Virus record (IMG/VR): IMGVR_UViG_2718218171_000001
Length of the DNA: 38,764 nucleotides
Direction: 5' to 3' (one strand)
Source: a virus
Lineage: Duplodnaviria > Heunggongvirae > Uroviricota > Caudoviricetes
In this document: in pieces, positions 36,342 through 37,463 of the stretch
How positions within the stretch are numbered: position 1 is the stretch's first letter
Layout of the letters: the number at the start of each line of letters is the position of its first letter
Notes under the pieces: generated by a model
What the model was told of the DNA's origin: nothing
What the model saw: the letters and a program-made list of their open reading frames with translations, nothing else
Database searches by the model: none
Program-made: the position numbers and the translations under genes

Positions 36342-37463
36342 TTAAGATATTCTTTTAGCTATAGAATGACCTATATTTATAAACGGTTTTTCTATTACGT
36401 TATATATCAAGTAAGATAGGCTTATAGAAATTATGAGCGATGATATATAAATGGCAAACGATCTATGTTCAGTGCTAACACCAATGCTGGAACCGTAAAA
36501 CTCAATAAACTGTATAACAGGAACATGAATCAGATAAAGTGAATATGATATTCCACCAAGAGCAACAAGTGATTTATTGAATGAAATAACTTTATTATTT
36601 TCTAGAATAATAACACATAAAACAATCAGAAATGCAATATATGCAGATCGCGTCAAACCATGTCCTTCAGACACCCCATTAAGCCAAAAAACAAACATCA
36701 TTCCTAGAATGAAAACGCATAAACTATTTATAATAGCATTATTCATTCTTTTATGCCTAAGTAAAGGCATTGTCTCTGATATAATCATCCCTAAAATGAA
36801 ATCATATACTATAGGGTTGCCTATGAATCCTATATGAGAAAACACTCCTGTTTTTGCAATATTGAATGATTGGGCGTCAATTACTACCGAGTGGTTAAAG
36901 TAAAGAGAAATAATTGTACTTACAGCAACTAGAAAACATGATGTGATTAATACCCTGTATTTTATACTTAATGACATGGATATTGCGAAAATAAAATAAA
37001 AATATATCTCGTACCCAAGTGACCATGAAACAATTAGCGTTCCCCACCCATAATATGGCGGTAGAGTTGAGCCATCTAAAGGGATGAGAAGAAATGATTT
37101 TATAATATTATTTATAGAAAAAACACCACCCCATGATACGCCTGTGTAAATATTGTGGTAAAAAAGAAAAACATAAACGCTTAATACTATTGCGTAAACA
37201 GGATAAATTCTAAAAAATCTCTTTACAAGAAATGAAGCGGTATTTCTTAAAGATGTTTTTGCTAAGTTTTTAGTTGAGTATGATATTATAAATCCGCTTA
37301 TTATAAAAAACAATTCAACTCCAAATATAGCATTCGCGGTTATCTTGTCCATGAAAGAACCAGGATCTACTTGCCCGAAAAGACCTCTATTATGACCAAT
37401 AGCTACAGCAAGAGCTGCAATTCCACGAAGCGCTTCTATTCCGTATAATTTATCTGTTTTCAT
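36342..37463 (-). CDS. Acyltransferase family 3 integral membrane protein (O-antigen/LPS O-acetyltransferase-like, Oac-type)
   Basis: About 373 aa, roughly ten predicted TM helices; N-terminus ...LYGIEALRGIAALAVAIGHNRGLF... and ...RIYPVY... match acyltransferase_3 motifs; very low GC; between tail fiber module and integrase. Confidence 0.85.
   Translation of the reverse strand: MKTDKLYGIEALRGIAALAVAIGHNRGLFGQVDPGSFMDKITANAIFGVELFFIISGFIISYSTKNLAKTSLRNTASFLVKRFFRIYPVYAIVLSVYVFLFYHNIYTGVSWGGVFSINNIIKSFLLIPLDGSTLPPYYGWGTLIVSWSLGYEIYFYFIFAISMSLSIKYRVLITSCFLVAVSTIISLYFNHSVVIDAQSFNIAKTGVFSHIGFIGNPIVYDFILGMIISETMPLLRHKRMNNAIINSLCVFILGMMFVFWLNGVSEGHGLTRSAYIAFLIVLCVIILENNKVISFNKSLVALGGISYSLYLIHVPVIQFIEFYGSSIGVSTEHRSFAIYISSLIISISLSYLIYNVIEKPFINIGHSIAKRIS

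Follow-up and report, generated by a model that had tools for sequence, protein, structure and literature searches.

The integrase-proximal acyltransferase gene

The stretch of DNA considered here (the window) comprises 38,764 nucleotides of a tailed phage (Caudoviricetes; IMG/VR record IMGVR_UViG_2718218171_000001), and our subject is a minus-strand gene beside its integrase gene that encodes a standalone acyltransferase-3 (AT3) protein of the inner membrane. The remaining prophage belongs with the lambdoid myoviruses of the SfV/SfIV type, known from the serotype-converting phages of Shigella, and the genomic context strongly supports the reading of the AT3 gene and its surroundings as a serotype-conversion cassette. 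An uninterrupted open reading frame (ORF) runs from a TTG start at 36342..37466 (minus strand, 374 amino acids [aa]), and the ATG one codon downstream gives the 373-residue protein that is also the RefSeq call at 36342..37463 (WP_000845327.1, “acyltransferase family protein”). The Pfam profile Acyl_transf_3 (PF01757) matches this protein from end to end (E=1.3e-28; 100.5 bits, with a gathering cutoff of 31 bits; protein residues 8-355 aligned to positions 2-325 of the 326 in the profile), and a PHROG search gives phrog_3333, “O-acetyltransferase” (E=7.7e-87). NCBIfam holds no usable equivalog, its lone match being a sub-threshold one to SucT, and neither a PDB sequence search nor PADLOC returned a match. 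The protein has no second Pfam domain and ends at residue 373, after its tenth transmembrane helix (TMH). Its AlphaFold2 (AF2) model (pLDDT 93) shows 10 TMHs in the 10-TMH core (TmAT) fold, and fold searches with the model match only the transmembrane acyltransferases HGSNAT and GWT1. An earlier, sequence-only reading of this DNA had proposed a multi-pass acyltransferase_3 membrane protein at exactly these coordinates, and this proposal is upheld by both the profile search and the model.

Every AT3 motif defined in the literature is carried by the protein: R13-X10-H24, FFIISG, R82xxR85, S306xxxY310, and E358. Among 83 aligned homologues, H24 does not vary, R13 is conserved in at least 90%, and both align with the corresponding residues of Sf6 Oac. 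F52-F-I-I-S-G57 (the FFxISG motif of TMH2), S306 and Y310 (SxxxY, TMH9), and E358 (the glutamate past TMH10) are also invariant, as is R82 of the RxxR motif in TMH3, the second arginine of which (R85) is at least 90% conserved. In OafA, OafB, and Oac, the R-X10-H, FFxISG, RxxR, and SxxxY motifs and the glutamate after TMH10 have proved essential (PMC7448272, PMC9833829); the OafA counterpart of the R13/H24 pair is R14/H25 (R/K-X10-H motif). Thus, the conserved catalytic residues, whose loss the sequence-only reading had named in advance as a reason for giving up its proposal, are all present. Compared with its orthologues in Salmonella and Enterobacter, the gene has a ratio of non-synonymous to synonymous substitution (dN/dS) of 0.10 (dS 0.52) and 0.12, respectively. 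Every copy has an intact ORF, and the exact protein sequence occurs on ~590 contigs. The function of the gene is kept under purifying selection.

The gene is poor in GC (0.316, and 0.23 at third codon positions), whereas the tail fibre, tail-fibre assembly (tfa), and integrase (int) genes have values of 0.57, 0.50, and 0.47, respectively. It is followed, 3 nt past its stop codon, by a 9-bp, GC-rich terminator hairpin and a T-run (36338..36317, minus strand), the hairpin core of which, AAGGCGCTAAAAAGCGCCTTTTT, is identical in the alignment with the Salmonella orthologous locus. Both the very low GC content and the terminator of its own had been noticed from the letters alone. Neither tandem repeats, long homopolymers, nor multiple GATC sites occur at the locus, so there is no sign of phase variation of the neuO-like or gtr-like kind. 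The single GATC in the leader of the E. coli cassette (37528) also stands at the aligned position of the Salmonella cassette (L003). The gtr and oafB genes of Salmonella undergo phase variation of the Dam/OxyR type, and one conserved GATC is too little for calling it here.

The slot, the module exchange, and the mobile cassette

E. coli 042 (O44:H18) harbors an SfV-type prophage, adjoining bioA, that is 97.8% identical to positions 29712-36309 of the window (6.6 kb), including the tail fibre and tfa genes. The homology to 042 (L023) stops at 36309, exactly at the stop codon of a 48-residue tail-fibre remnant, which marks the left junction of a module swap. Past this point, the 042 prophage continues with a terminator, a gtrC-like gene (GC 0.31), gtrB, and gtrA, whereas the window continues with a terminator, the AT3 gene, and intS. 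The AT3 cassette is therefore a precise alternative to the O-antigen glucosylation module: it exactly replaces the gtr module, and the two phages, which have the same tail fibre, are otherwise nearly identical. On the other side, homology to the integrase genes of Sf6, K-12, and the P0010 locus (a related AT3 locus described below) starts at 37614.

The gene is thus placed int/att-proximally, between the tfa/fibre remnants and intS-argW, which is the position of serotype-conversion modules. In Sf6, the order is tailspike, terminator, oac (minus strand), and int (minus strand), the same as in the window; in CUS-3, it is endosialidase tailspike, neuO, and int; and in CPS-53 of K-12, it is argW, intS, gtrA-gtrB-gtrS, and tfa remnants. 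In Kapi1, an argW/IntS phage reported as an O-antigen modifier, the slot is essentially empty. The sequence-only reading had located the gene between the tail-fibre module and int, in the slot of serotype-converting genes, and both points agree with these layouts: Sf6 has oac there, and the 042 sibling prophage and CPS-53 have gtr genes at the same place.

A blastn comparison of the window with a Salmonella locus (L003:5953-7181) gave 86.5% identity over 1232 bp, covering only positions 36287-37511, with no match outside them. Besides the ORF and its terminator, this interval takes in ~48 bp of leader on the 5' side and the final codons of a fibre ORF convergent with the gene. The Salmonella orthologue, 89% identical as a protein, is found in a lambda-like siphovirus prophage adjoining the hut operon, at the end that carries the tail genes (gpJ, DUF6453, tail fibre). 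Comparison of the two loci suggests that the cassette moves alone, between unrelated phages (an E. coli argW myovirus and a Salmonella siphovirus). The 48-residue remnant was also considered as a homologue of the Salmonella tail fibre and was rejected, only the last ~7 codons being common to both; because the similarity is limited to these codons, a cassette that travels together with a receptor-binding domain is unsupported.

More distant homologues occur in differing phage types, namely in Enterobacter between lysis genes and a probable tailspike gene (67% identity), in E. coli in the same argW-intS slot beside tfa and fibre genes (50%), and in P22-like Salmonella phages (47%). All are convergent with a tail fibre or tailspike gene, and their GC content is 30-33%. 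The E. coli allele (P0010, 255 cluster members) was observed on three contigs (L009-L011, 4681-8240), where the neighbouring fibre is Gp53-like, and it is absent from all 5426 complete E. coli genomes surveyed below. Escherichia fergusonii and Citrobacter portucalensis are also among the recorded sources of proteins with at least 90% identity to the AT3 protein (the P0001 cluster). It should also be mentioned that strain LSC52, one of the carriers described below, has a second, P22-like prophage (L018, NZ_CM137002.1, 43906-46951) that ends with a tailspike gene followed by a convergent gene for a “CatB-related O-acetyltransferase” of the hexapeptide family, adjoining dacD. This is a further tailspike-adjacent acetyltransferase cargo in that genome.

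The features around the gene are collected in Table 1. The tail fibre and Tfa are presumed to be receptor-binding proteins, the receptor of which the cargo would modify. Both fibre/tfa remnants (36025-36309) are also found in the 042 prophage and in many other E. coli prophages, and may be what is left of an alternative fibre segment or of one that could be inverted. At the nucleotide level, the integrase gene is 95-97% identical to those of Sf6, HK620, CUS-3, and CPS-53 of K-12 (96.5% for Sf6). The last 8.7 kb of the window are 98.7% identical to an E. coli chromosome (NZ_CP104371.1), in which the integrase gene is followed by tRNA-Arg (argW), yfdC, mlaA, and fadL.

Table 1. Features at the integrase end of the window
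Feature	Position	Strand	Basis or remark
Tail fibre (310 aa, glycine-rich C-terminal domain) and tail-fibre assembly protein (134 aa)	34716..36053	+	Pfam Gly_rich_2, Caudo_TAP; PHROG tail-fibre families
Inverted tail-fibre-assembly pseudogene remnant	36025..36153	-	RefSeq “tail fiber assembly protein, incomplete” in L001 and L023
48-aa remnant of a tail-fibre C-terminus (...KRADGIDV-stop)	36163..36309	+	phrog_20787, E=9e-9
Mobile cassette common with Salmonella siphovirus-type prophage	36287..37511	-	blastn
Low-GC insert	36310..37613	.	Bounded left by the end of 042 homology, right by the end of Sf6/K-12 intS homology
Intrinsic terminator of the AT3 gene	36311..36338	-	AAAGGCGCT-AAAA-AGCGCCTTT then T-run; terminator scan
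AT3-only inner-membrane acyltransferase, 373 aa	36342..37463	-	ATG start
int-AT3 intergenic region, 143 bp	37464..37606	-	One GATC at 37528
IntS tyrosine integrase, 385 aa (Sf6/HK620/CUS-3/CPS-53 type)	37607..38764	-	Pfam Arm-DNA-bind_3, Phage_int_M, Phage_integrase

Elsewhere in the window, a pair of minus-strand cargo ORFs (11677-14511) lies inside the forward-transcribed regulatory and late region. One encodes a C-5 cytosine DNA methyltransferase (346 aa; PF00145, E=3e-59; PADLOC MTase_II, E=7e-91), and the other an ABC/OLD-type AAA ATPase (596 aa; AAA_15/AAA_21; PADLOC HEC-04, E=2e-36, and ATPase-Toprim_I-B, E=1e-24). The two together look like a defence or restriction-modification-like moron pair. 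At 1227-3110 (minus strand), a 627-aa protein begins with 270 residues of DUF2303 (YfdQ-like, E=2e-89), and its C-terminal half has no Pfam match.

Host O antigen and the proposed function

The hosts were surveyed in 5426 complete E. coli genomes, in which O-antigen clusters were found by synteny. The AT3 cassette is present in four of them (2021CK-01784, LSC52, 2018-05-2CC, and GIMC1405:EC_Lstone01), and all four carry the wzy/wzx cluster of the O17/O44/O73/O77/O106 family (the O77 group), the wzy gene of which was found in 93 genomes (1.7%). By the hypergeometric distribution, a 4/4 co-occurrence has a chance probability of ~8e-8 if the carriers are independent, and of ~3e-4 if only two clearly different chromosomal backgrounds are counted; there are at least two such backgrounds, 2018-05-2CC differing from the others in its wca, gnd, and his alleles. 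In this small and partly clonal sample, the AT3 gene is specific to the O-antigen type of its host (4/4 versus 93/5426). The O77 group has the common backbone ->6)Man(a1-2)Man(a1-2)Man(b1-3)GlcNAc(a1-> (Man, mannose; GlcNAc, N-acetylglucosamine), and it has been diversified by modification genes outside the cluster, mostly gtr genes on prophages (PMC7685785, PMC13188871, PMC4379981).

The same glycan may be involved in Salmonella. The named Salmonella carriers of the AT3 orthologue are serovars Carrau and Beaudesert. Beaudesert is probably O:6,14 in the Kauffmann-White scheme; a literature search for its antigenic formula gave nothing usable. Serovar Carrau is 6,14,[24]:y:1,7 (PMC5465390). A Salmonella cluster with the order galF-GT-GT4-manC-manB-wzy-wzx-gnd is colinear with the O77-group cluster, with matching protein sizes, and its Wzy is 70% identical to that of the O77 group. 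This is probably the O:6,14 cluster, and the AT3-bearing strains may have it. Wang and colleagues (2007) reportedly described E. coli and S. enterica O antigens with a common backbone, and Salmonella O:6,14 is presumably the member that shares the O77 backbone. A literature search on O-acetylation in O:6,14 yielded nothing usable. Citrobacter, too, has Wzy homologues, which are 50% identical to the Wzy of the O77 group.

From these observations, we consider it probable that the AT3 gene is the serotype-conversion module of an SfV-type myovirus prophage at argW and encodes an O-antigen O-acyltransferase acting on the O77-group backbone. If it works like Oac, OafA, and OafB, the protein would form a 10-helix pore, which cytoplasmic acyl-CoA, most likely acetyl-CoA, would enter. 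The acyl group would be relayed by His24/Arg13 of TMH1, R82xxR85 of TMH3, and S306xxxY310 of TMH9, as proposed for Oac/OafB, to a hydroxyl group of the O antigen (O-unit or polymer) on the periplasmic side. The acceptor would most likely be the Man-Man-Man-GlcNAc backbone of O17/O44/O73/O77/O106, which Salmonella O:6,14 probably has as well. The modification would change the antigenic type of the lysogen and would lower the adsorption of phages that use this O antigen, the carrier phage included. The O-antigen substrate and the acyl group, like the modified position, expression in the lysogen, and superinfection exclusion, are what we infer for this enzyme. A further proposal, that the cassette is a backbone-specific O-acetyltransferase that gives an undescribed O-acetylated O77-group/O:6,14 antigen and tracks this glycan across genera by moving between phages, seems to us evenly poised between true and false.

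Several observations weigh against this interpretation. The O77-group structures are described, in the literature found, as differing only in their glucose side branches, with no O-acetyl group mentioned; either this counts against the hypothesis or the type strains lack a cassette that is rare in the group. Only 4 of the 93 O77-group genomes have the cassette, and three of the four carriers share most flanking alleles, which implies few independent acquisitions. Instead of the specificity of the enzyme, the host range of the carrier phage, and in part clonal descent, could account for the association. On the Salmonella side, the link depends on assignments of the O:6,14 backbone, of the colinear cluster, and of the O type of Beaudesert that are probable only. 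Moreover, low GC content and a conserved terminator are the marks of a moron that the gene displays, and in the 143-bp spacer between int and the AT3 gene, no minus-strand sigma-70 promoter (promoter scan) and no Shine-Dalgarno sequence were recognized; at 32% GC, the gene could be silenced by H-NS. Finally, proteins with the AT3 domain only are known to acylate other glycans, for example enterobacterial common antigen (ECA) in the case of WecH and osmoregulated periplasmic glucans (OPGs) in the case of OpgC (PMC9558356).

This last point leads to an alternative, which we regard as unlikely, in which the AT3 enzyme is active but its acceptor is another envelope glycan (capsule or K antigen, ECA, colanic acid, or periplasmic glucans), or the group transferred is not acetyl (succinyl or propionyl, for example). 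The acceptor of an AT3 enzyme cannot be assigned from its sequence, OpgC succinylates periplasmic glucans, and other AT3 proteins modify capsules and Nod factors (PMC9558356); in CUS-3, the gene in the very same slot, neuO, encodes an acetyltransferase for the capsule and not the O antigen, and the absence of O-acetyl from reports on the O77 group fits this alternative as well. On the other hand, ECA, colanic acid, and OPGs are made by nearly all E. coli, and a restriction to hosts of a type found in 1.7% of genomes would not be predicted. The site of the gene is exactly the one that a gtr module for O-antigen glucosylation has in a 98%-identical prophage. A single type of O-antigen cluster is found in the carriers although they represent at least two E. 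coli backgrounds, and the same backbone is suggested by the named Salmonella carriers. Among the named WecH and OpgC proteins, NCBIfam contains no near relative, with only the one sub-threshold match.

A silent or decaying passenger, whose co-occurrence with the O77 group comes from clonal inheritance and prophage host range with no effect on the surface, would account for the lack of a recognizable promoter or ribosome-binding site upstream and for the relatedness of three of the four carriers. The cassette also lies amid tail-fibre and tfa remnants in a recombination-scarred region, and such AT-rich DNA would be a typical target of xenogeneic silencing. We nevertheless hold this explanation to be improbable: the reading frame is intact in every copy and on hundreds of contigs, dN/dS is 0.10 over a dS as large as 0.52 between E. 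coli and Salmonella, all catalytic motifs are kept, the terminator is perfectly conserved, and the cassette has apparently kept to hosts of one O-antigen type although it has been transferred between unrelated phages. It is more doubtful still, to the point of being scarcely credible, that the protein acts mainly in phage defence or superinfection exclusion without acyl transfer, for example by blocking DNA injection. The AT3 product is indeed a polytopic inner-membrane protein, and int-proximal morons of temperate phages often encode inner-membrane exclusion proteins. However, PADLOC found no match, and the full set of AT3 catalytic motifs is under purifying selection, which a purely steric role would not need.

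If serotype conversion by O-acylation is correct, the consequences extend beyond this phage. By modifying the O antigen, prophages determine the serotype of a strain, its susceptibility to phages, and how well vaccines and diagnostics fit it, and the members of the O77 group (O17/O44/O73/O77/O106) are not resolvable by gene-cluster genotyping. The group includes the sequence type ST69 lineage of the 2025 outbreak of hemolytic uremic syndrome in France (PMC13188871). The AT3 gene would then represent an unrecorded extra layer of antigenic variation in a group thought to differ only by gtr glucosylation, a hidden serological and phage-receptor variant for which the gene itself would be a simple genetic marker.

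Comparison with known systems

The closest model in arrangement is Oac of Sf6 (OacA), likewise a standalone AT3 protein encoded on the opposite strand between a tail gene with its terminator and int. The two phages have 96.5%-identical integrases and the same argW-type attachment system, and the R-X10-H, FFxISG, RxxR, and SxxxY motifs and the C-terminal glutamate of both proteins all align. Orthology to Oac was nevertheless rejected, BLASTP giving 31% identity over only 81 N-terminal residues. The proteins differ in overall identity (22% in the multiple alignment), length (373 versus 333 aa), and GC content of the gene (32% versus 42%), and their carriers are an SfV-type myovirus and a P22-like podovirus (Sf6), respectively. 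Their acceptors would also differ, being presumably a mannose/GlcNAc backbone for the AT3 protein and the rhamnose backbone of S. flexneri for Oac.

The essential residues are the same in the AT3 domain of OafA and OafB of Salmonella (GtrC family II), and OafB, encoded by a prophage (BTP1), protects against the carrier phage (PMC9558356). Unlike the window protein, which stops after TMH10, these are AT3-SGNH fusions with an 11th TMH; the fusion type (OafA/OafB/OatA) was ruled out for the window protein, which has neither that helix nor a periplasmic SGNH domain. The transmembrane acyltransferases recovered by the fold searches, human HGSNAT and fungal GWT1 (TmAT superfamily), are eukaryotic, have ~12-15% identity, act on other acceptors, and contain extra domains. 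The closest phage-borne homologues are the phrog_3333/ExoZ-like AT3 proteins of P22-like Salmonella phages (SI8, S.Inf 5-2, and relatives), which are 47% identical over their full length. Their genes are likewise convergent with a tailspike gene and have ~30% GC, but they belong to another phage type and host serogroup, and according to the records none has been experimentally characterized. By its sequence, the AT3 protein belongs with them in a subfamily (phrog_3333) that is distinct from Sf6 Oac and uncharacterized.

The gtrABC modules of SfV/SfIV-type phages, 042, and CPS-53 occupy the identical slot, and their serotype-specific gene is also low in GC (0.31). They differ in mechanism, since three genes carry out glucosylation by way of bactoprenol-glucose, whereas the AT3 cassette has a single enzyme dependent on acyl-CoA. 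The 042 gtr prophage and the AT3 prophage live in hosts of the same O77-group O-antigen family and, being 98% identical apart from the module, form a natural pair with alternative modifications against one tail fibre. The lysogenic-conversion arrangement is otherwise a textbook one; what is added here is the connection with one particular O-antigen backbone, which apparently holds in two genera, together with this natural pair of gtr and AT3 prophages.

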